From: a virus
Taxonomy: Duplodnaviria > Caudoviricetes
Direction: 5' to 3' (one strand)
Virus record (IMG/VR): IMGVR_UViG_3300028186_000155
Length of the DNA: 64,000 bases
Made by a program: the position numbers and the translations under genes. Below, one piece after another: positions 3,916 through 53,684 of this stretch. The notes under the pieces are model-generated. The model did no database searches. It saw only the letters and a program-made list of their open reading frames with translations, and was not told where the DNA came from. Every line of letters begins with the position of its first letter. Position 1 is the stretch's first letter.

Positions 3916-4725
3916 CTAGATGGATTTTGGATCAAGGATAATATCCCCGATTGCGCTAACATACGACGGATCACCGTAGCCCTGTTTGTAGCCGTCAACG
4001 CCCGAACGCCCACCCACATATTCCAGCAACGACAATTCGTAACCGGTAATGTTTTGGCAGCGACGATAAACCAGATTGCCATTAGGCATTTGATACGTTG
4101 GTTTGCGCGGGCGAGTGTGCGAACACGGATTGCCAACGCCTTTACCGGCCACATGGCCGCAAACCGAACAGGTATAACGGTTGTACAGCATGCCCATGGA
4201 ATAGGTATTCAAAACCCGATCCAAAACCAATTGGCAACGCTTAGGATCAAGGGTGCGATCCAGTGCCCCGAGCATTACCAGTTTTTGAATGTTTTTAAAC
4301 CGGGTTGGGCGCAGGTACGAACCGAGAATCAGACCACGAACCCATTCAGGTTGGTGCTGGTGCTCAACGTACATTGGGCGGCCTTCCCACGTTTTGTATG
4401 CGAGCCGTCCGCACGGTTCATTCCACGCAGTGAATTGCTTCAAATCTACCGAATCCCCGTTGGTATTGGGAATCATGGTGATCATTGCAGGAACCGCCAC
4501 CAGAATATAATCGCTGATATTCTTGGACAAACCGTGGTATTCCGCTGCACGTGGCAACCACACATTCGCTTCCAAGTTTTCAGCTTGATCAGTACCAGAA
4601 ATCGAAGCACTGATAGGCAATTGCCCGGCTTCGTTTAGGCGTGCACCGTGTAGCTCAGTGGTGATCGGCGTCCCCATATTGAACGCCGTGGCCACATAGT
4701 CATTGCCGTAAATGTCTTCGATCAT
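3916..4725 (-). CDS. prohead (maturation) protease, assemblin/HK97-type fold
   Basis: EHQH and YSMGMLYNRYTCSVCG (catalytic-Ser motif followed by CxxC), then ELS; head-module position. Confidence 0.7.
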   Translation of the reverse strand: MIEDIYGNDYVATAFNMGTPITTELHGARLNEAGQLPISASISGTDQAENLEANVWLPRAAEYHGLSKNISDYILVAVPAMITMIPNTNGDSVDLKQFTAWNEPCGRLAYKTWEGRPMYVEHQHQPEWVRGLILGSYLRPTRFKNIQKLVMLGALDRTLDPKRCQLVLDRVLNTYSMGMLYNRYTCSVCGHVAGKGVGNPCSHTRPRKPTYQMPNGNLVYRRCQNITGYELSLLEYVGGRSGVDGYKQGYGDPSYVSAIGDIILDPKSI

Positions 4726-5057
4726 TGCTTGCCCCCGGTGTAGTGATCACGTACCCACTGGCGAGCATCAGCAATTGCCATTTTGTTGGGATTATTCAGA
4801 GAAAGTAAACCTTCCTCAGATTGCGCAACGTGGACGTTTGGCTCTTCCTCATTGAATTCGTGGTCGTGATCAAACGGGTCGAATTGCTGATGGTGAAGTT
4901 TTGCGGTCCACATTGCAGTTTGTTGTGAACGATTTGCGCTTTCGTCAGGAACGGAGGCAAGGGTTGCAATGCGTTTATCGCCATCGCAAACCCATACCTT
5001 GGTGCGTTCAGTCATCGGCAAATGGCGTTCGTCAGGATCGCTCAGAAAAGTGAGCAT
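4722..5057 (-). CDS. hypothetical protein
   Basis: AGGAGG RBS; ATGA overlap with the protease gene. Confidence 0.7.
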   Translation of the reverse strand: MLTFLSDPDERHLPMTERTKVWVCDGDKRIATLASVPDESANRSQQTAMWTAKLHHQQFDPFDHDHEFNEEEPNVHVAQSEEGLLSLNNPNKMAIADARQWVRDHYTGGKQ

Positions 5058-5068
5058 TTTTCGCCTCC

Positions 5069-6544
5069 TTAAAGAACAGTGCGGTAATCGAAATCACCGT
5101 CAAAATGGATGTAATATCCATCGTCAATACTGCCGAGAGTGGCACGACCTTTCCCGTTGTCGTAGTGGTACGCGACTTGGCCATCGTTTTCGGTGGCACT
5201 CACGAAATACCCCATACGACGGAACATTTTTTCTAGGGATGGAACACCGCCCGCGCAGCTGAATGCCATGCCGTTTCCGCATTGACGGAAATCATCACAG
5301 TTGGCGAAACGCAGCAGGTATTTCAGGTCTTGGAAATTGTTCACGGTTTCCGAGGCACCTGCAAACATTTCGTCGCGGTGTTCTTGGAAATCGCGCACAG
5401 AGTGGTATTTCAGCAGGTCGGTTACATGATCCACGATCAGGCCAATGGTATCTTCGTCCGACATTTCCGGTTCTGCTTCGAAGTCGAAAACCGAATCGGA
5501 TGCAACTGCCAAATCACCTTGTTGTTCACGTTTTTCACGCGCTTTACGCTGGGCATCTTTGTACATGCGCGTCATGTTGTCGCGAGCGCTAATTGTGTTA
5601 ATGAAATCCAGTTCCTCTTTGGTCAGGGCTTCACCAGCTTCATGGCGCTTCAGCAAGGATTTATGGCGTTTACGATCAACGTCAGAAACGTTAAATTTGC
5701 CCGCTTTGTAATCCTTGTGCAAACGACCGGCTGCGCTTTGGCTCTTCGAATCGTCATCATCGAAGTTTTCGGTGCCCAGTGCTTTGCGTTCGTCGCGGCG
5801 TTTCTTCTCACGTGCGGCTTTCAGTTCGTTGATATCATCACGCAGGTTTTTGCCGTGTTTCGAACCGGCCCACATGTTGAACAACGTAACGCCCATCAGC
5901 ACGCCCAGCGGGGCCGCAGCCATGCCACACGCCATTACACCAGCACCCAGCAGGGCCATGGTTGCAATACCGCCCAAAACGCGGTGCATTGCGTGTTTCT
6001 GCGTGGTGCTCAGGTCGTCGGGGTGTTCCTTGCCGCTTACCAGATCACGCGTAGCGGCCAGCCCACGCCCGTACATGTTGGGCAGGCGTTTTGCTTCTTT
6101 GCCAACAGTCTTGACGATATCCTGCTTGTTTTTGGTGATATTGTCCGCAGCTTCGCGCAGGTGGCTATCGGTCACATGATCGAGCGCCTGCAACGAAGCC
6201 GGGTTAATCACCGCAGTATTCGCCTTGTTGAATTCCGCGATTTCTTTGCGGGTGTTAATGTGTTCAGCACGCTTTTTGCGTTTTTCCTGAATCTGATCCT
6301 CGGACATAAAGCGATCACGGCCAACAGGCGCCACCGCTTTAGTTTTCTGCCCGTCTTCCACGTTATCGGGATCGCCTTTGTGCATCAGGAACCGATAGGA
6401 GGAATGCGGATAAAGTTTCAGATAACGCTCACGCTGCGATTTGGAGAGTTTGAGGAATTCCCCTTTACTCAGGCGCTTTTGCCATGTCGCCATTTCTTGC
6501 ACATGGCTGTCATCTTTGAACGCCCACGCTAGAGCAATAATCAT
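5069..6544 (-). CDS. probable internal virion protein with a hydrophobic membrane hairpin
   Basis: MIIALA N-terminus; GGIATMALLGAGVMACGMAAAPLGVLMGVTLF segment; LAVASD site. Confidence 0.55.
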   Translation of the reverse strand: MIIALAWAFKDDSHVQEMATWQKRLSKGEFLKLSKSQRERYLKLYPHSSYRFLMHKGDPDNVEDGQKTKAVAPVGRDRFMSEDQIQEKRKKRAEHINTRKEIAEFNKANTAVINPASLQALDHVTDSHLREAADNITKNKQDIVKTVGKEAKRLPNMYGRGLAATRDLVSGKEHPDDLSTTQKHAMHRVLGGIATMALLGAGVMACGMAAAPLGVLMGVTLFNMWAGSKHGKNLRDDINELKAAREKKRRDERKALGTENFDDDDSKSQSAAGRLHKDYKAGKFNVSDVDRKRHKSLLKRHEAGEALTKEELDFINTISARDNMTRMYKDAQRKAREKREQQGDLAVASDSVFDFEAEPEMSDEDTIGLIVDHVTDLLKYHSVRDFQEHRDEMFAGASETVNNFQDLKYLLRFANCDDFRQCGNGMAFSCAGGVPSLEKMFRRMGYFVSATENDGQVAYHYDNGKGRATLGSIDDGYYIHFDGDFDYRTVL

Positions 6545-15886: not shown

Positions 15887-17527
15887 TCAGTTCTCGGTGA
15901 ATGTGATGGAAGAGCCGAAATTGCGAATGTCTGCGGTCAGAGAAGCGCGACGTGCAGGAATGCTCGGATCAATCACGAAATCGAGGTTGATATCGTTGTT
16001 CGCGATATCTGCCGGGGAGTTGTTGCGGCTGTCACAAATGGTTTCCCAATCGTACAAACCACGGCCCTGTTTAACAGTGCGCGCTTCCGCGTCAACGATG
16101 TTTTTCAGCTGCTTGCGTTCGAAATCGTCAGCAGGGTTGAAAACGGACGGCAGGAACGCTTTGCGAATCATGGCCTTGATCCCGTTCACCAAACGACGAA
16201 CGTTCACGTTTTGGAAACCGCTGGCAAAGGTTTGCAGGGTCAGCTGTTCCATGATCACGTAACCACGGCCCGGAATGCGGCGCACGTAGTTGATTTGCGC
16301 TTGTTCCAGCGCATTGCGTTCTGGCAGCGAATATTTCTTCGAAAGATCCGTGACTTTCACTTGGCCGCGATTCAAACCGGCAGGCGCCCAGTAGTAGGCA
16401 CGCACACGGTCGGTGTACGCATATTGCGCAGCGACCATACCGGAAATCGGGCACCAGAATTTCTTACCCGAAACGTCATCGGTGACTTGCCCGCGTGGGC
16501 CGTACAGTGCCGAATAGCTGCTCGACAGGTTGAGGATATTTCGACGCCAGTTAACGGCGCGTGCAACTTCCTGCATATCGAACGGCAAATCCTGAATGGT
16601 GATTGCGTCACCACGGGATTCTGCAACGGCGTTCATGCGGCGCACGATTTGTTCGTTTTCGTAACCGCACGCAACCAGCATTTGCACCGCGAATTGGTCG
16701 GTATCTTCGATGCCTTCCCAAGCTGCGTTGATTTCTGCAATGGTTGCACGCTCGCCATCTTCGCCGCCGTCGAGGCGTTCGATGGTGGTGGTGCGAATTT
16801 CCACAGCCGGGCACAGGCTGTTGTTTTTGACCTTGATGTAGTTGGATTGCGAGTTCACCCGCGCCTCAACAAACATTTGGTTTCCTTCGCCGTCCAGTTC
16901 GTAAATCCGCGAACAGAAATACGATTCTACCGGAATGCTAGACGAACCTTTGTAGTTCAGGAAAACATCGAGGTAGAAATGGGTCGGGTCGTTGAATTCA
17001 CCAACTTCGGTGCCTTCCGGGTTAGCGGGGCGAATGCGAACGCTGATGATGCCAGACCATTCGCCGGGCGAGTTGGCGCAAACATAAAGCAGCGCGTTTT
17101 TCACACCAGCATCAGCGGCGGTGAAGCCCAGTACATCGAGGGGATTACCCAAAACGCCTTGCGGTTTATTGGTGCCATTATCCCAATTGACCAGCTTAAC
17201 GACCGGCACCAAAGCGCTGGTATCGTCAACCGACAGGTATGCCCCGGCGGTGCGTGCGGTCGCGGCGTTGACTGCACGTTTGATCCACATGGCGGTTTGC
17301 GCCAAAGTGTGTTCGGCACAGTGCATGCCAAAGCCGTATTTGGAATAGTTTTTAATGCCGAACTTTTCGCGCAGCACTTGTTTATCCGTTACATAAATCC
17401 AGTCGCTGGTAGAACCGCGAGGGGCTTCGATAACGGCGGATGCGATGGAGCTAACCACCGGGGAACCACGTTGACTTACGTCATTGTCCCGGTCGTAAAC
17501 ACCAGCGCTGGTGTTGGTGAAATCCAT
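15887..17527 (-). CDS. contractile tail sheath protein (T4 gp18-like)
   Basis: AGVY N-terminus, WAPAGLNRG, NVRRL, ICDSRNNSPADI motifs. Confidence 0.93.
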   Translation of the reverse strand: MDFTNTSAGVYDRDNDVSQRGSPVVSSIASAVIEAPRGSTSDWIYVTDKQVLREKFGIKNYSKYGFGMHCAEHTLAQTAMWIKRAVNAATARTAGAYLSVDDTSALVPVVKLVNWDNGTNKPQGVLGNPLDVLGFTAADAGVKNALLYVCANSPGEWSGIISVRIRPANPEGTEVGEFNDPTHFYLDVFLNYKGSSSIPVESYFCSRIYELDGEGNQMFVEARVNSQSNYIKVKNNSLCPAVEIRTTTIERLDGGEDGERATIAEINAAWEGIEDTDQFAVQMLVACGYENEQIVRRMNAVAESRGDAITIQDLPFDMQEVARAVNWRRNILNLSSSYSALYGPRGQVTDDVSGKKFWCPISGMVAAQYAYTDRVRAYYWAPAGLNRGQVKVTDLSKKYSLPERNALEQAQINYVRRIPGRGYVIMEQLTLQTFASGFQNVNVRRLVNGIKAMIRKAFLPSVFNPADDFERKQLKNIVDAEARTVKQGRGLYDWETICDSRNNSPADIANNDINLDFVIDPSIPARRASLTADIRNFGSSITFTEN

Positions 17528-45318: not shown

Positions 45319-46362
45319 TCAGAACCCAAGGACGTTTTTGGCTTTATGCACTTCTTTTAATGCCAGTTTGATTTGCTTTTGCGTCAAACCTTCGGCACCG
45401 AGGAATGATTCCAAACCGAATTCAGGGTCAATATCCGCCCGGTCGATTTTAATGGTATCCGCGTCCTCAATTGCTTTATCCTTATGGCCGGTATAAACAA
45501 TGCCGCCCGTAATATTCGGATATTGCAGCATAATATCTGCTGGCACCGGCACTTCTGGATCAACGTGCAGTTTATAGCGGATATTCGAATCGTGCTTGAG
45601 TTTCTTGAAATCGTTGAGGTCTGTAATGTGAATATTCAGCAGGGAAAAACTGGGTTTATTCTCAACGAATTTATGCTCTACTTCGATCTTGTCACCGATC
45701 AGTTTCACCCGCGCATGCACAAACCCTTTGGGCAGCGCTTCACCGAAGTTTTTCTGGAACGGGTTGCCACAATAAATGGCCCGTTTGGCTTTCATGTACT
45801 GGTATTGGTGGATGTGGCCGCTGATGGTGAAATCGTTTTTATGCGATTGCAATTCCTGTTTGGTTTTCAGGGTACGCCCGTTGTCACCAATGGCCCCTGT
45901 ATATTCGACGTGTGCCACGTTGAGTGCACCGGTCTTTTTCGACAGGGTTTTGAGCGCAGGGAAAGGCAACAGGTTGACCGGCACACCGTTGATTTCGATG
46001 CGCTCGGGTTTCAGGATGATTTGCAGGTTTTTGAATGCTTTGGTCTTGGTCAAACGTCGCATGAAATTCATGGACATTTTATCAATGTGTTCGAAGTCGT
46101 GGTTGCCCGCCACGTAAATGAACGTAAGCAGCGAGTCATATTTGTGGAACAGGTTGAACAGGTTTTGGTAGGTATCAAATGGCAGGTTGGGCGTATCGGA
46201 AATGTCGCCCGGAATGATCATGTATTTGATGCCGTTACTCAACGCGTACTGAATGATCTTTTCGGCCTCGGCCAGAATGCGTTCATCGCCATCTTGGAAA
46301 TGTTTGTTCAGGCCGGTGAGGTGCCAGTCCGAGGTGAAAACGGCTTCAAATTCTTTTGCCAC
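45319..46362 (-). CDS. sbcD: Mre11/SbcD-like nuclease (gp47-like)
   Basis: SDWHL, PGDISD, GNHD, AH, SGHIH, YCGNP motifs. Confidence 0.92.
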   Translation of the reverse strand: MAKEFEAVFTSDWHLTGLNKHFQDGDERILAEAEKIIQYALSNGIKYMIIPGDISDTPNLPFDTYQNLFNLFHKYDSLLTFIYVAGNHDFEHIDKMSMNFMRRLTKTKAFKNLQIILKPERIEINGVPVNLLPFPALKTLSKKTGALNVAHVEYTGAIGDNGRTLKTKQELQSHKNDFTISGHIHQYQYMKAKRAIYCGNPFQKNFGEALPKGFVHARVKLIGDKIEVEHKFVENKPSFSLLNIHITDLNDFKKLKHDSNIRYKLHVDPEVPVPADIMLQYPNITGGIVYTGHKDKAIEDADTIKIDRADIDPEFGLESFLGAEGLTQKQIKLALKEVHKAKNVLGF

Positions 46363-46371
46363 AATAGGTTC

Positions 46372-46680
46372 CTAGCGAGTCCAATTGAGTTCGAGTTTAT
46401 AACCCAGTTTTTCCGCAATGATGATCAGCACTTCGAGGTCGGCATTGACCAGCGATTCGTGTTCATCATCAGCGAAATCCGGGTGGAAATACGGCATGAG
46501 TTCCCGGCACAGAATGCCACCGATATTCAGGTAGGTTTTCTGCACGTAACGGCGTAGGCATTTGGCGCTGGTTTCTTTCTGGCCTTTGCACTGCGGGCGC
46601 GCCTGCCGGGACAATTCGTTGATTATGATGGCGTATAGTTCTGCCTTCATAGTGTTTACAGTTGTTGTCATGCTCGACAT
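46372..46680 (-). CDS. XRE/HigA-like HTH protein (start may be 46671 or 46650)
   Basis: MKAELYAII...DLEVLIIIAEKLGYKLEL C-terminal pattern. Confidence 0.45.
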   Translation of the reverse strand: MSSMTTTVNTMKAELYAIIINELSRQARPQCKGQKETSAKCLRRYVQKTYLNIGGILCRELMPYFHPDFADDEHESLVNADLEVLIIIAEKLGYKLELNWTR

Positions 46681-47108
46681 AACCCCTTTTCCAGTTTGCG
46701 CTCAACCTTCACTTGGAACGTGATGCTACGCTCTGCACGCGCAGGCAGCATGGAGAAAGCGAGGAAAACGTTACCGAGGTGTGCACGCCCAACCTTGTGG
46801 GCCTTACGGCGACCGCGCAGCCAGATGAATTTGATATCGCCGTCGTCTTTGTCCATCAGGCGCACCAGACAACGGTTTTTATCATCGTGAATTTCGTATT
46901 TGGTGCAGGCCTGAACGTTGACGTTTTTCAGTTCTTCCACCAGCCCTTGGTGCTGCATGTTGGCCACGAATGCTTGGCACTCGGCAACCATTTGTTGCGG
47001 CGACACTTTGAACAGGCTTTCGGTCAAAGATTCTTTGAGTTGCGCGCTGATTCTTTCTTGCAGCATGCGCACCGTTTGACGTACAACGATCCGATCAATT
47101 GGATGCAT
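46668..47108 (-). CDS. stand-alone tail-sheath C-terminal-domain-like protein
   Basis: DRIVVRQTVRMLQERI and FLAFSMLPARAERSITFQV resemble the sheath NVRRL and final strands; GGAGG RBS. Confidence 0.5.
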   Translation of the reverse strand: MHPIDRIVVRQTVRMLQERISAQLKESLTESLFKVSPQQMVAECQAFVANMQHQGLVEELKNVNVQACTKYEIHDDKNRCLVRLMDKDDGDIKFIWLRGRRKAHKVGRAHLGNVFLAFSMLPARAERSITFQVKVERKLEKGLCRA

Positions 47109-47780: not shown

Positions 47781-48401
47781 TTAACGGAGACGGATCAACT
47801 GACCGGGGAAAATCAGGTCAGGGTTTTCCAGTTTGTTGATGCGTGCGAGTTCGCGCCAGCAAATGCCGAAAGTGGCGCCGATTTGGGACAACGTGTCGCC
47901 TGCAACCACACGGCAGTAACCGAGTATCAGACACTGGATCATACCGGAATAGTTGCGCACGTTGGTCAGCACTTCCTGCGGCAACGACAGGTCTTCCTTG
48001 TCGATCAGTTTCTGAATAGTTTCAGGCAGATTGTCTGCAATAAAATCGTCAGACAGTGCCTTGGGTTCGGCTGGTTTCCACAGCTTGCAGTATTTCAACA
48101 CGTTCGGCACGTCGGCGGAATCAACAGGCAACACCACAAGGCAAGTTGGCTCGGCGTTGCAGATGGTGTTTTCGTGGCCCGCGTGATGAATCAGCGTTTC
48201 CTGAATTTTCAGGAATTCGCGTTGAGTTGCACGCACCACAACCTTGCGGAAAGATTCGTCAAACCATTTGAAATAATGGGCACGTTGGGCGCCGTCGAGG
48301 CAGGTGAACTTGTCGTGTGCAGTCAGCACCGAATGCGCGACCAGTGTAGGCACCATGTAATCGGGCGCGTCTTCACGTACAGCGATGTACATTTTCAACA
48401 T
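47781..48401 (-). CDS. PTH2-like peptidyl-tRNA hydrolase domain fused to a C-terminal LysM
   Basis: KMYIAVRED..VAHS..W...FRKVVV...TCLVVLP; YCRVVAGDTLSQIG..FG..WRELARINKLENPDLIFPGQLI. Confidence 0.75.
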   Translation of the reverse strand: MLKMYIAVREDAPDYMVPTLVAHSVLTAHDKFTCLDGAQRAHYFKWFDESFRKVVVRATQREFLKIQETLIHHAGHENTICNAEPTCLVVLPVDSADVPNVLKYCKLWKPAEPKALSDDFIADNLPETIQKLIDKEDLSLPQEVLTNVRNYSGMIQCLILGYCRVVAGDTLSQIGATFGICWRELARINKLENPDLIFPGQLIRLR

Positions 48402-48784
48402 TTTGGGAGTCCATGACAGAAAGAAACTTCGTGTTTTTTCGCGTAGACGTGGGCCAGCCGACGACTACGGAACCACAGTTGAATCATCGGGGCCTTGGTG
48501 AACGTGACGTATGCCCCTTTGCGCCCACTCTCGACCGTGTAACGCGGTGCCGTGTTGTGTTCCGTGATCAGCTGCGCCCAATCCTGCAAAAACTTCAGCA
48601 TTTTCGAATCAGGATTTTCAATGGCTTCGCACGTCGATTCCATGGGCGCTGGGGAGTTTGCCCAATCCATGCGCTGGATCTTGAACGGTTGAAAACTCAT
48701 ACCGTGCGGCGCGTTTTCGAAATTGACCGTGAACTCTTCGGGCCGTTTGCCGTAATCGGAAAATCCATCTGCCACGAAAATCAC
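48395..48784 (-). CDS. hypothetical protein with a segment reminiscent of tail-tube proteins
   Basis: GTGA overlap start; TCEAIENPDSKMLKFLQDW. Confidence 0.5.
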   Translation of the reverse strand: MIFVADGFSDYGKRPEEFTVNFENAPHGMSFQPFKIQRMDWANSPAPMESTCEAIENPDSKMLKFLQDWAQLITEHNTAPRYTVESGRKGAYVTFTKAPMIQLWFRSRRLAHVYAKKHEVSFCHGLPKC

Positions 48785-49056
48785 GTGCGGATTCCTTCTT
48801 TCAACACCTGTTCGATGTTGAGGTCGGCGCACTTGAGCAATTCGATCAGATCGTCATAGTTGAAGCGGTCGATATGCCCGCTCAACAAATCCTGCAACCG
48901 GCCATTAGAAATCCAGAGCTTCTGACAGATTACTTCTGGATTCTGGCCCCAGCTTTTGATTTCACGAACAAGGCGGCGCATCAGGAAAGAGCGCAGACGC
49001 ATTGCAGGAACTTCATCGGCAGGCAGCAAATGTTCCCAAACGCAATGGTTATTCAT
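48781..49056 (-). CDS. XRE/HigA2-like HTH protein
   Basis: LRSFLM...ICQKLWISNGRLQDLLSGHIDRFNYDDLIEL. Confidence 0.75.
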   Translation of the reverse strand: MNNHCVWEHLLPADEVPAMRLRSFLMRRLVREIKSWGQNPEVICQKLWISNGRLQDLLSGHIDRFNYDDLIELLKCADLNIEQVLKEGIRT

Positions 49057-49385
49057 TTTTCAGGCTTCCTGTATACGTCGGTAATCAGGTCGGTGCGCGT
49101 AATGTGCGGAATGGCACCCGGCTTGATGGTTTCGCTCAAAATGAGATGCGTGTGTTCCGGCGTTTCTTCAACGACTATCGGATACGGACCTTCACCGAAC
49201 ACGCGCTGTTCCCCGGCAATCAACTCAGATGAAATTCCCAAACTTTCGTACATGCGCGCCTGAAGCTGTTGTGCCTCAGCTTCACCCCACGTAACCCAGC
49301 CACGTGTCGGACCCTTTTCGGCAGGGACCACAATGGCCCCAGTTTCGTCAGGTTCTGCCTGCGAAATATCCTGTTCAATGATCAT
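49053..49385 (-). CDS. small protein starting with a tail-sheath N-terminal motif
   Basis: IIEQDISQ...GAIVVPAEKGP; GAGG RBS. Confidence 0.6.
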   Translation of the reverse strand: MIIEQDISQAEPDETGAIVVPAEKGPTRGWVTWGEAEAQQLQARMYESLGISSELIAGEQRVFGEGPYPIVVEETPEHTHLILSETIKPGAIPHITRTDLITDVYRKPEK

Positions 49386-49560
49386 CTGATTTTTCCTCGA
49401 TTATTTCGCCGGTTTTTGCATCGCGTGGCACGTACCACTGGCGATCATTCGGCAATTCCCATCCGGCAGGCAGTGTGATATCGATTTTCAACATGTTGTT
49501 TTCGATATCTTCCGGGCTGTTGTTGGTTTCGTCGCAAATCACTTCCCAATCATGCGGCAT
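49375..49560 (-). CDS. 61-aa tail-sheath C-terminal fragment
   Basis: DWEVICDETNNSPEDIENN versus sheath DWETICDSRNNSPADIANN; GAGG RBS. Confidence 0.75.
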   Translation of the reverse strand: MPHDWEVICDETNNSPEDIENNMLKIDITLPAGWELPNDRQWYVPRDAKTGEIIEEKSDDH

Positions 49561-49795
49561 GTTTGTTTCCTCGGCGTCGTGCGAGCATTTCGCGTGCGGT
49601 TTCCGGGTGCAGTTCGAAAATGTTCAGCGGCCTGCACCGTGTCAAATGGTGGGGTTTATATTTGGTTGGGAACCACTCACCTCGGTACATGGAAAATTCG
49701 AACACTACACGCCCACGGCGGCTGTAGAACATTTCGCTAATGCCTTTGGAAATAACGTGGGTTGCAGTGCGTGGGGATCGAGAAATGCCATTCAT
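49550..49795 (-). CDS. hypothetical basic protein
   Basis: GAGG RBS; ATGA overlap. Confidence 0.6.
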   Translation of the reverse strand: MNGISRSPRTATHVISKGISEMFYSRRGRVVFEFSMYRGEWFPTKYKPHHLTRCRPLNIFELHPETAREMLARRRGNKHAA

Positions 49796-50505
49796 TGTTC
49801 GGCGGCCCCTCGGTTGATAGCGCGGATGTACCGCATTTCGTAGGCGCTGATTTTGAATTTGTGTGCCACTTCGTCTTCCTCTCCGTCCATTTGCAGGGCT
49901 TCGCGGTAGATGCCCACGGTTTCCGTGCTCAGCAATTCCACCAAACGTTCGGCCTGTTTGTCTGTGAGGTAAACGGTGCGGCGCAGCTTTTCAATTCGGT
50001 TATTCAGCTGCCGGTAAGTTTCTTTAGACGCCAGCCATTTGCAGGCCAATTGCCGGACCGGAAGCTGGTGTGTTTCCGATGGCATGGTGTAACACCACGT
50101 CATGAAGTTGGTGAAGAAAGTTTGTTGCGATGCAGCGTGTTTCTTCGCGTGCAACACCACATCGAATTTGCGGCGCTGGCCCGTCACTTCCTTGGCCGGT
50201 GGAATCCCCTTGAAGTCGATCAAGGTAAAGCCGTCAACGTGGAAGTCTTCAGCCTCTTTGAAATCAACCGGAATCAAATCGTGAGGTGCCAGTGAAATGG
50301 GATCGTCGCAGACGTAGCAAATGCAGCCCGCTTTGGCTGCGCGTTCCCGGTAGGTTTCGAAACTCACAACACTAACAAAGATCAGGTGTTTGCGTGCTTC
50401 GAAATCTGGACCGAGGATTGCGATTTGTGAGCGCTGCACCCCGGATTGGCGCAGGTGTACCAGAACTTTATCGGGTGATGTGTGTGCGAAACCGTAGGCG
50501 ATCAT
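49792..50505 (-). CDS. hypothetical protein
   Basis: 237 aa; possible C-terminal HTH (EVAHKFKISAYEMRY). Confidence 0.7.
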   Translation of the reverse strand: MIAYGFAHTSPDKVLVHLRQSGVQRSQIAILGPDFEARKHLIFVSVVSFETYRERAAKAGCICYVCDDPISLAPHDLIPVDFKEAEDFHVDGFTLIDFKGIPPAKEVTGQRRKFDVVLHAKKHAASQQTFFTNFMTWCYTMPSETHQLPVRQLACKWLASKETYRQLNNRIEKLRRTVYLTDKQAERLVELLSTETVGIYREALQMDGEEDEVAHKFKISAYEMRYIRAINRGAAEQ

Positions 50506-50636
50506 TTGCCGGACTTTTCCTTCAGTTGTTTCTTGAGGCGGCCAGTCATACCGAGCGCGTCGGAATGGAATTTGATGGCTGCACGGTGGAACGTGTACAG
50601 GTTGGAAAATTTCAACAGGCGCAAATCATCTTTCAT
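50502..50636 (-). CDS. 44-aa hypothetical protein (below ORF-track cutoff)
   Basis: MKDDLRLLKF..., GGAG RBS, ATGA overlaps at both ends. Confidence 0.55.
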   Translation of the reverse strand: MKDDLRLLKFSNLYTFHRAAIKFHSDALGMTGRLKKQLKEKSGK

Positions 50637-51104: not shown

Positions 51105-51406
51105 TGAACGTCACTCAGCTTTGCACCCGCTTTGCACAGGTGATAAGTGATGTTGGTGGTGTCTGCCAAATCCATCGCAAATATCACCGAGGCCTCCACC
51201 TTGTCTTCGTGCCAGAAGATGCCCAGCAAGCAAGGGAAAATGCTAGGCATTTCATCCGGGTTGTTGACGTAGGGTAGTGCCATGTAATCCACGTCGTCTT
51301 CGTTGTCGGTGTAGATGGCGTTCAGAAACTTTTCGATATCGTGAACGCCATTAACGATTTGTGCGTAGACGTTTTCAGACAGCATCGTATCGAACATTGG
51401 AAACAC
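51101..51406 (-). CDS. hypothetical acidic protein (start may be 51397)
   Basis: Operon ORF. Confidence 0.6.
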   Translation of the reverse strand: MFPMFDTMLSENVYAQIVNGVHDIEKFLNAIYTDNEDDVDYMALPYVNNPDEMPSIFPCLLGIFWHEDKVEASVIFAMDLADTTNITYHLCKAGAKLSDVQ

Positions 51407-53684
51407 CCTTGAATTTTTCTACCGTGACGTAAGAGCATTCCGGGTGCAGGTGCTTGCCCTTCTGCGTGATGATGAACACGTGAGGGACCAGCTTGCGCAG
51501 GAACGGCACATAACGTTCTACGAAAAGGTTGGTAGTCGCTTGGTCCATGTGCGCATCTGGTTCGTCCAGAATTGCCAGATTAACCCGGCGATCATCTTTG
51601 GCCATGATTACGCAGGCGAGGAAGTGCAGTAGGCGGAAACTATCGGATTCAGCACCCGACAATTCGCGAACATCCGACACATTACCTTGGCCCCGGTCAA
51701 CCATGATGTGCACGCCGTCGTCTTTGGCATTGACCGTAAACTTGAACGGCTCGGCAAAGATCAGCTGTGCGTATTTGTTGTAATTCTGCTGAAGGCCGTA
51801 GACAATTTCGTGCATGGCGTTCAGCTTCAGGCCCTTGTTGCTGTAGGCCTTGGACAGAATCTTAAACCGCTTCATTTTCTTGATCAGCGGCGCGAACTCT
51901 TCCACCTTCTGGCTCGCCTCTTCGCGCTGCTTTGACAGCAGTTTGAATTCAGCTTTCAGCGAGCTATAGCGCACGGTGATTTTCTGCGCTTTGGTGTATT
52001 TCTTTTCGACCTTTTCCAACTTGGCTTCGACTTCAGCCAGACGCTTGAGAATGTTGTCGTCTTCCGGTACTTCGTCGTACTCTTCCAGTCGCCCTTTGAG
52101 ACGGGCCACTTCATCCAAAATTTCTTTTTGCTCTTCGATCTTTTCCATCGAAATCGTGCAGCGACGTGCTGGCGGTTTCGGTTTCTTCAGATCGTTAAGC
52201 TGGGCCATGATTTCTTCCCAGCGCCCGGCGTTCTTGATGTTTTCTTCCAGCTTATCAATTTCGCCGTTGATCACCTTGATCCGCTTGCGAGCCGCGTAGA
52301 AAGCGCGTTCGTCAAACTTCAGGGCTTTGATTGTTTCGGTGTTTTCTTGCTTGGTGATTCGAATTTCCAGCGCGTGGATCATCGAGTGCGCTTTGCCCTT
52401 GCGTTTCTTGGCTTGGGCAATGGTTTTTTCCAGATCCTTGACATTGATTGCCTGCATGCAGGTTGGGCAGTTGCCGCCGTCATGGTCATGCAGCAAGTCG
52501 GCAAGTTTCATCGTGGTTTTTGCCGTGGTGTACTCTTCTTTCAGAGCCTCCATCGGGTCCACGCCTTGCTTGTTGCACTTGCTCAGGAATTTACGCAGAT
52601 CCGGGTCCACGTGATCATCAAGGTTTTCCAGTTCGCGCACAGCCGCGTCGTGCTTGTCGCGGACCTTTTCCAGCTTGCGGTCTTGCTCTTCGAGGTGCTT
52701 GAGTTCGGTGCGCAGTTTCTTCAGTTGGAATTCTGCTTTCTTGCCACCGCCCTCAACGCCGCCCAGTTCCGCCAGCTTGGCTTCCCATTTCTTGACCTTG
52801 CGTTGGTATTCCTCAAGGTCATCGTCGTATTTTTCTTGTTCCTGATGCAGCTTGTACTGGTCGCGCAGTTCGGCCTTGTCGTACTTGAGTTTCTTTTGCA
52901 GCTTTTTCAGCTTTTGCTTGGTGGTGCTGTAGAACTCGACCTGCTTGGCCAGACTCTTCAGTTCCTGCCGTTGCGACTGGAGTTTGGTAACTTTTTTGGA
53001 CTGGGTTTTGACTACTTCTTTCGCCTCAGCCAGTTCCTTATCCAGCTTTTTGTTCCAGCCGTTTTTATTCAGCTGGTCATTGATGTTCATCAGCTGGTGC
53101 GTGAACGCGTCCGACTTGTTCTGCGCTACCTTGACCTCTTCGATACGCTTGTCGAAATAACGACGCAGCACGTCGAATTGATCAAGGCGCCAGACTTGGC
53201 TGATGTAGGACATGCGGGCGCGGGGCGTGCCGTACAAAAATTCGAGTTTCTTCTGCGATTGCAGGTGCACATACGAATACCATTCGTCTTGTGTCAGCGG
53301 CAGAATTTTCTCGATTTGAATACGGGCGTCACCTTGCCGCCCGAACTTCATGTCCTCTCCGTCACGCAGCACTTTGTAACCACCGGCCTGCTGGCGAATG
53401 GTCCACTTGTGCCCGAGGTTTTCCACGTCGATTTCGATGAACGAACCTTTCGAGTGGATGCGGTTTTTCTTTTTCGTATCTGCCATTGGCGTCTGCTCGA
53501 AAGCGACGTTAGGCAGCATGGAAAACATGAGGGATTTACCTGCGCCGTTGTTCTGCTCTTTCGAGATTCGCGAATCGCGGTTATGGCCGGTAACAGTGGT
53601 CAGGCCGCAATTGTTGGTGAAATCAAATTCGCCCATCTTGTACGAAACGATTCCGCCGAAACGGCTACAGGTAATGTTGATCAT
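51375..53684 (-). CDS. sbcC: Rad50/SbcC-like ATPase (gp46-like)
   Basis: NGAGKS, Q-loop, coiled coils, CPTC zinc hook, LSGAE, ILDEP, IITQ. Confidence 0.93.
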   Translation of the reverse strand: MINITCSRFGGIVSYKMGEFDFTNNCGLTTVTGHNRDSRISKEQNNGAGKSLMFSMLPNVAFEQTPMADTKKKNRIHSKGSFIEIDVENLGHKWTIRQQAGGYKVLRDGEDMKFGRQGDARIQIEKILPLTQDEWYSYVHLQSQKKLEFLYGTPRARMSYISQVWRLDQFDVLRRYFDKRIEEVKVAQNKSDAFTHQLMNINDQLNKNGWNKKLDKELAEAKEVVKTQSKKVTKLQSQRQELKSLAKQVEFYSTTKQKLKKLQKKLKYDKAELRDQYKLHQEQEKYDDDLEEYQRKVKKWEAKLAELGGVEGGGKKAEFQLKKLRTELKHLEEQDRKLEKVRDKHDAAVRELENLDDHVDPDLRKFLSKCNKQGVDPMEALKEEYTTAKTTMKLADLLHDHDGGNCPTCMQAINVKDLEKTIAQAKKRKGKAHSMIHALEIRITKQENTETIKALKFDERAFYAARKRIKVINGEIDKLEENIKNAGRWEEIMAQLNDLKKPKPPARRCTISMEKIEEQKEILDEVARLKGRLEEYDEVPEDDNILKRLAEVEAKLEKVEKKYTKAQKITVRYSSLKAEFKLLSKQREEASQKVEEFAPLIKKMKRFKILSKAYSNKGLKLNAMHEIVYGLQQNYNKYAQLIFAEPFKFTVNAKDDGVHIMVDRGQGNVSDVRELSGAESDSFRLLHFLACVIMAKDDRRVNLAILDEPDAHMDQATTNLFVERYVPFLRKLVPHVFIITQKGKHLHPECSYVTVEKFKGVSNVRYDAV

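Follow-up and report, generated by a model that had tools for sequence, protein, structure and literature searches.

The stretch of DNA analysed in this work (the window, 64,000 nucleotides) shows in minus-strand view a portion of IMG/VR record IMGVR_UViG_3300028186_000155, a virus sequence of 314,224 bp that carries direct terminal repeats. Within it, a tight, co-directional and mostly overlapping run of genes lies between sbcC (51375–53684) and sbcD (45319–46362). The run includes P0001, a 61-aa ORF (49375–49560, minus strand) consisting of an N-terminal sheath-type hairpin module followed by an acidic 30-aa tail. The module spans the codons of residues 3–30 (49471–49554, minus strand), carries the motif ICDxxNNxPxxI and was defined by BLASTP, PHROG sheath HMMs, hhalign and an AF2 model of a homologue from the related locus L026. 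P0001 begins with an ATG at 49558–49560, seven bases downstream of a GAGGA ribosome-binding site (49568–49572, minus strand) that was read from the sequence, is conserved in the related locus L023 and falls within the 3' end of an upstream 81-aa ORF (49550–49795). There is no earlier in-frame start. An earlier note on this DNA had credited P0001 with a ribosome-binding site of its own, and this description stands.

P0001 is followed by P0005, a 110-aa ORF (49053–49385, minus strand) that shares 11 bases with it and starts with an ATG behind a GAGGA of its own, and then by a 91-aa HTH_37 (XRE-type) protein (48781–49056, minus strand) that matches Pfam PF13744 at 29.5 bits, against a cut-off of 27, and phrog_2339. 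Each of the 61-aa, 110-aa and 91-aa ORFs has its own start, and the first two junctions combine a stop/start overlap with a ribosome-binding site. A programmed frameshift joining the 61-aa and 110-aa ORFs was considered and rejected, as the downstream frame is +1, a slippery heptamer is absent and the second ORF has the start signals described above. The homologues in Lu11, HRDY3 and L023 are single chains, and P0005 matches their middle section.

Ten neighbouring ORFs were run against Pfam and PHROGs, and no RelE/HigB-type toxin gene was found among them in either collection. Between 46300 and 53800, no sigma-70-like promoters were found, against a mean of 5.1 in shuffled sequences (sd 2.2), and terminator-like sites occurred at chance level. 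The lack of sigma-70-like sites is consistent with the use of phage-specific promoters. A 206-aa protein in the same run (47781–48401, minus strand), annotated in HRDY3 and Lu11 as an endolysin, has a clear LysM domain at its C-terminus (E 8e-10). Its N-terminal domain reaches 22.6 bits for PTH2, against a cut-off of 23, and matches phrog_5822 at E 3e-49. Pfam and PHROGs revealed neither a lysozyme nor an amidase domain in it. By eye, a short basic module, formed of a strand and then a helix with an RSxRLAR-like motif, recurs in several paralogous small ORFs of the run and of its relatives. It lies at the C-terminus of ORF 48395–48832 (minus strand), in an insert of ORF 46668–47108, in L023 at 4440–5015 and in L025 at 4309–5267 and 5656–6057, is either C-terminal or internal, and sometimes shares a chain with the hairpin.

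P0001 had been described as the clearest member of a fragment cluster, and this grouping is upheld for one neighbour only, those read as tube-, portal- and sheath-arm-like having no family match in Pfam or PHROGs. For P0005, an assignment to a sheath N-arm or to a portal piece was rejected (E 4.6 in BLASTP against the sheath, no Pfam or PHROG match), as was that of ORF 48395–48832 to a tube fragment, for which Pfam and PHROGs returned no family. The neighbour that retains a weak likeness to the sheath C-domain is P0006, a 146-aa ORF (46668–47108, minus strand) with a probable sheath C-domain or gp25/TssE-like fold, assigned from a Pfam match below cut-off and from structure alignment. The Phage_sheath_1C model matches P0006 at E 0.0011, below cut-off, and was seen in two of three members of its family. 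The AF2 model of P0006 has a pLDDT of 72.8, and a Foldseek search of the PDB with this model gave nothing at E 0.001 or better. In an exhaustive VIA-align comparison, seven of the ten best matches were sheath C-domains or gp25/TssE-type proteins with Z values of 5.2–6.8, the sheath C-domains being those of phi812, Mu, an Anabaena injection system, phiCD508 and PhiTE. Because these Z values are middling, the likeness of P0006 to sheath domains is probable rather than proven. The best-conserved part of the P0006 family is a basic insert at the would-be hairpin-loop position. A search for relatives with P0006 alone found nothing.

The source family of the P0001 motif is represented in the window by tail sheath protein 1 (546 aa, 15887–17527, minus strand), which matches Pfam PF04984 and PF17482 as well as phrog_23 (E 3e-62). 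In BLASTP, residues 3–30 of P0001 align without gaps to residues 492–519 of this sheath (15971–16054, minus strand), with 15 of 28 residues identical and 19 of 28 positive (E 6e-10), in agreement with the earlier claim that the first 28 residues are related to the sheath C-terminal motif at about half identity. When P0001 was compared with all six-frame stop-to-stop segments of the window, the sheath was the sole significant match at E about 7e-8, the next best segment reaching 0.13. Two PHROG tail-sheath models, phrog_10581 and phrog_23, match residues 4–30 at E 1.2e-4 and 2.4e-4 respectively. A tblastn search of 50,697 phage records gave matches in 146 of them, and all 40 matches listed were to tail sheaths or to small hypothetical ORFs of related jumbo phages, including one mis-labelled as terminase in a duplicate record. 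When IMG/VR was scanned with a hairpin profile, each of the 80 best confirmed matches was a full-length sheath with the motif 45–58 aa from the stop, the known mini-proteins not being among these 80. A profile built from nine related hairpin-HTH proteins, with the query excluded, aligned in hhalign to residues 492–528 of the sheath profile with a probability of 93% and E 2.6e-7. Together, the BLASTP, six-frame, PHROG, tblastn, IMG/VR and hhalign results confirm at the sequence level that the resemblance between P0001 and the sheath hairpin is real and not due to chance.

The resemblance is restricted to the hairpin. The complete sheath C-domain, comprising two helices, the hairpin and a C-terminal arm, was not found in P0001, which aligns only to sheath residues 492–519. 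A comparison with the Phage_sheath_1C HMM (PF17482), proposed in the earlier note as a check, returned no match to P0001 in Pfam at E up to 1. The cut-off of this model is 26.9 bits and the true sheath of the phage itself scores 29, and the lack of a match fits with P0001 covering about a quarter of that domain. Neither Pfam nor PHROGs gave a match of P0001 to GPW_gp25 or to a terminator family, no HTH was found by Pfam within the polypeptide, and a PepSY match in Pfam (E 0.084) was taken as noise. The only match in a sequence search of the PDB was a weak one to a sheath (E 1.4). The 30-aa tail is poorly conserved. It had been called unrelated, which is correct with respect to the sheath but not altogether, since its first half aligns with the linkers of the HRDY3 and L023 homologues. 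Among 5.8 billion proteins, the only near-length homologue of the full 61-aa P0001 was P0001 itself, a relatives search with P0001 alone found only a 1041-aa sheath, and megablast of 48500–50600 against the phage collection gave no match. A protein identical to P0001 is recorded on nine contigs.

Sheath identities of 88% with Pseudomonas phage HRDY3, 72% with Lu11 and 46% with PaBG place the phage of the window in the Lu11/PaBG ('Lupandier') group of jumbo phages. Two full-length sheath paralogues are present in each of this phage, HRDY3, Lu11, Dickeya JA29 and Erwinia pEa_SNUABM_25, and the pair found here matches the two-component sheath described for PaBG (PMC7412058). The motif has diverged in the second paralogue. 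In the present phage, that paralogue lies outside the window at about 93.9–95.5 kb of the record (L021), as a 546-aa frame with 38% identity over the C-domain.

The sheath motif aligns to residues of about 600–633 of T4 gp18, past the two helices of the C-domain, and the strand-loop-strand bearing CDxxNNxP is the most conserved stretch of T4-type sheaths. In the P1 sheath, domain I consists of two helices and a beta-hairpin, and the N-terminus of one subunit pairs with the C-terminus of its neighbour to form a two-stranded handshake sheet (PMC10304247). Four-stranded sheets arise between rings, the handshake sheets of each being attached to domain I hairpins in the adjacent one, and at the last ring the place of the handshake is occupied by the termini of the terminator protein (PMC10304247). 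Judged by its position in the alignment, the P0001 module is the predicted equivalent of this acceptor hairpin.

To place P0001 among its relatives, the conserved 237-aa upstream gene was used as an anchor, and six IMG/VR loci and two informative metagenome loci were fetched. The syntenic gene between sbcC and sbcD begins with the hairpin in 11 of 11 sampled relatives of the Lu11/HRDY3 group, and the hairpin starts two to five residues past the initiator Met in the window, HRDY3, Lu11, L023, L024, L025, L026, L028, L135 and L137. What follows it varies. In L025, L026, L028 and L135, the protein is 131–132 aa long and consists of the hairpin, a short linker and then HTH_37; in Lu11 (L027, 166 aa) and L137, with lengths of 164–166 aa, a middle segment separates the hairpin from HTH_37. 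In HRDY3 (182 aa), L023 and L024, the hairpin is followed by other modules in proteins of 182–190 aa, and a separate HTH_37 gene comes next. The hairpin is thus fused to HTH_37 in six sampled relatives (L025, L026, L028, L135, Lu11 and L137), and the three fusions scanned with Pfam scored 34.5 (L025), 38.4 (L026) and 28.1 bits (Lu11) against the cut-off of 27. Nine further clusters with the same fusion, of 129–132 aa, were recovered from the 5.8 billion proteins searched, and in these ICDxTNNPP is invariant and the HTH almost invariant. Two alternative versions of the hairpin loop occur among the HTH fusions. In an AF2 model of the 132-aa fusion of L026, residues 6–9 and 28–31 form strands joined by a loop with a short helix (pLDDT about 66–69), followed by a low-confidence linker at residues 36–42 and then by a confident HTH.

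The view of P0001 as a mini-protein that arose on its own is not upheld, because among close relatives the hairpin always forms the start of a longer chain of 131–190 aa, often an HTH_37 regulator. Among the sampled relatives, only the phage of the window has a stand-alone hairpin. Alignment of the DNA with L023 locates the break: the end of the upstream gene, the ribosome-binding site and the hairpin are about 85–88% conserved, as read off the alignment, and the homology ends just past the hairpin to resume only at the junction with the HTH gene. In this mosaic, the hairpin and the HTH stay in place and the cassette that separates them can be swapped. Comparison with the relatives makes the 61-aa form a fission product peculiar to this phage.

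Across 22 hairpin codons, pS is 0.5–0.9 and pN 0.1–0.3 in most pairs of relatives. The peptide motif has thus been kept, under purifying selection, while silent sites came near to saturation. The pair formed by the window and HRDY3 shows the reverse (pS 0.04, pN 0.16), with too few sites for a test. Together with the two versions of the loop, this pair may indicate diversifying change in the loop.

An origin by recent copying from the phage's own sheath would explain why 13 of the 15 residues common to P0001 and that sheath are encoded by the same codon in both genes (8.5 expected, uncorrected P about 0.01), and 13 of 16 are so encoded between the Dickeya JA29 mini-protein and its own sheath. 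Such codon identity could be explained by shared codon usage within a genome or by occasional gene conversion, and the amino-acid identity does not favour the phage's own sheath. Unrelated IMG/VR sheaths are 57–60% identical to the module and the own sheath 54%, contrary to the earlier impression of a particular closeness between the two. Residues common to the mini-modules from the window, HRDY3, Lu11, Dickeya JA29 and Erwinia pEa_SNUABM_25 number 14–20 of 28, against 9–16 of 28 for mini-modules and sheaths; the derived residues that the mini-modules have in common are E-D, ahead of the conserved I, and NNxLN. Because the mini-modules are closer to one another and the own sheath is not the nearest sheath, the module appears to be old and conserved rather than a recent copy. 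From comparison of sequences, P0001 is best regarded as a real and selected gene, with homology over roughly its first 30 residues to the conserved beta-hairpin in the C-terminal domain of sheaths.

The descriptive part of our account, in which a conserved sheath-type hairpin serves as a fixed N-terminal module, with the part downstream of it shuffled between relatives and split off in this phage, is very probably correct. The hairpin is the fixed start of the gene that follows the 237-aa gene between sbcC and sbcD, and the cassette behind it is exchanged, with the run ending in HTH_37, either fused or as the next gene. In the present phage, a stop and a restart come with an inserted segment, so that the hairpin would be released as a 61-aa peptide, followed by the 110-aa protein and the 91-aa HTH_37 protein. 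The explanation preferred for the locus as a whole, that of a split-off sheath hairpin acting as a docking arm, is put forward tentatively and at rather less than an even chance. Its functional element, that the module is a docking arm for the handshake strands of the sheath, is a conjecture by analogy that is somewhat unlikely to be right as it stands. It derives from the role of the hairpin in the sheath, where adjoining subunits dock their N- and C-terminal handshake strands onto it by beta-sheet augmentation. The presence of the sheath-like P0006 in the same gene run and the two-component sheath of the phage group are counted in its favour. A bare hairpin is unlikely to be stable alone and would fold on pairing with such strands, as it does in the sheath. 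Candidate partners would be the free handshake strands of the phage's own sheath subunits, or P0006 through its C-terminal strand, and docking would link attached or co-expressed regulators and modules to the pool of unassembled sheath protein.

Several observations speak against docking. The gene run lies among DNA-metabolism genes and far from the tail genes, P0001 is a hairpin alone rather than a foldable domain and does not reach any Pfam sheath model, and the hairpin loop varies among relatives. The excess of non-synonymous change between the window and HRDY3 would also fit a partner that diversifies or is not a sheath. Stand-alone HTH_37 proteins evidently work without a fused hairpin. 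A prediction of the complex between the full sheath and P0001, with a score of 0.00 and the fold of the partner uncertain, weighs neither for nor against docking.

The first alternative to docking is that the hairpin was taken from a sheath long ago and is now only a structural or dimerisation arm of HTH_37 regulators, the 61-aa form being a translated remnant with little or no role. This too is unlikely, yet it accounts directly for hairpin-linker-HTH_37 being the commonest architecture, for the form in the window being unique among the eleven sampled relatives, for the poor conservation of the P0001 tail and for mini-proteins that resemble each other above any sheath. It is harder to reconcile with the AF2 model, where a low-confidence linker rather than a packed unit joins the hairpin to the HTH, and with the retention of a good ribosome-binding site and an intact motif in the split ORF. 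The hairpin is, moreover, kept on proteins that lack an HTH, namely those of HRDY3, L023, L024 and PaBG (gp291) and the Dickeya and Erwinia mini-proteins. If the hairpin is only a structural arm, the locus would be a modest curiosity of domain origin.

In a further alternative, the free hairpin would be a decoy that mimics a sheath epitope to blunt a host immune sensor, or an agent that caps or poisons sheaths made by competing phages, by tailocins or by type VI secretion systems. In its favour, the motif is the most conserved epitope of sheaths, and P0001 matches many unrelated sheaths at 57–60% identity and sits in a fast-changing accessory gene run. However, frequent fusion to a DNA-binding domain is unexpected of a decoy, the PHROG matches are to T4-type sheath families, such a poison would also hit the sheath of the phage that makes it, and the top-listed papers of a literature search included no defence system triggered by tail sheaths; this reading is improbable. 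That the ORF is recombination debris with a meaningless motif match is very improbable: it is short, lies in a mosaic region and has no near-length homologue besides itself among 5.8 billion proteins, but the match is significant by three methods (E 6e-10 to 2.6e-7), every relative has the hairpin at this N-terminal place, pS greatly exceeds pN, the ribosome-binding site is conserved and the identical protein occurs on nine contigs.

Within the docking explanation, a more specific possibility is that the hairpin is a sensor arm that reads the handshake strands of unassembled sheath. The hairpin-HTH_37 fusions would then be transcription switches coupled to assembly, and in the present phage the sensor would be split from its DNA-binding part, with P0006 as a possible third component. 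This version is quite unlikely; if true, it would represent a phage counterpart of the checkpoint regulators that monitor a structure while it is being built.

The handshake hairpin between subunits is the mechanical joint of all contractile injection systems, and no earlier account was found of non-sheath proteins, or of an HTH regulator, that carry a sheath hairpin as a module. If a 28-residue copy of it is a portable module, in particular on a regulator, this would constitute a new route by which virion parts become regulatory or interaction tags. Such a module would also provide a natural peptide that may bind sheath subunits and could be used for probing or blocking sheath assembly. The locus is, in addition, a record of how genes are split and cassettes exchanged around a module that stays in place, within the accessory regions of jumbo phages.

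The closest known domain is Phage_sheath_1C (PF17482), which corresponds to domain III of T4 gp18 and domain I of P1 gp22 and contains the same strand-loop-strand with CDxxNNxP, to which the module aligns without gaps. P0001 holds about 28 of the roughly 100 residues of that domain and lacks its two helices and C-terminal arm. Its module is at the N-terminus of a protein encoded in an accessory run, whereas the sheath motif lies about 50 aa from the C-terminus. Other members of the 'Lupandier' group encode hypothetical proteins of 85–224 aa with the same motif and the same derived residues, namely Dickeya JA29 gp015 (L005 2363–2620), Erwinia pEa_SNUABM_25 gp57 (L006 2333–2686), a 112-aa ORF of Erwinia Y3 (L123 1327–1665) and PaBG gp291 (L125 3133–3807). 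In these proteins, the motif is in the C-terminal half, the genome positions differ and there is no HTH, and the Dickeya and Erwinia mini-proteins have further sheath-like elements on either side of it, a helix before and a strand after. The annotation of the homologues is hypothetical protein, and in one Dickeya record the hairpin sequence is within a CDS annotated as a DNA adenine methylase.

The contact proposed for P0001 is of the type made by the sheath initiator gp25/TssE and by the terminators P1 gp24 and T4 gp15, small proteins that offer or accept strands and so complete the four-stranded sheet between rings. P0006 resembles gp25/TssE and sheath C-domains in fold, with Z values of 6.0–6.8. 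The initiator and terminators are folded virion or baseplate domains encoded with the tail genes, whereas P0001 is a bare hairpin with an acidic tail. For the fused relatives of P0001, the nearest analogy is with XRE-type regulators and antitoxins such as HigA2, in which a short arm at the N-terminus is likewise joined through a flexible linker to a C-terminal HTH. The arm of the Vibrio cholerae HigA2 is reported to fold when it binds its partner (PMC11006873, PMC5416850). A profile search of the PDB with the HTH returned only 2a6c (E 4e-10) and 2o38, HigA2 being absent from a search that may miss distant relatives. Given the lack of a toxin gene nearby and of a sequence link, the hairpin proteins are not assigned to the HigA2 family. 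The arrangement of arm, linker and HTH is shared with HigA2, and a further difference lies in the arm itself, which here comes from a virion protein and, in the window, is a separate polypeptide.
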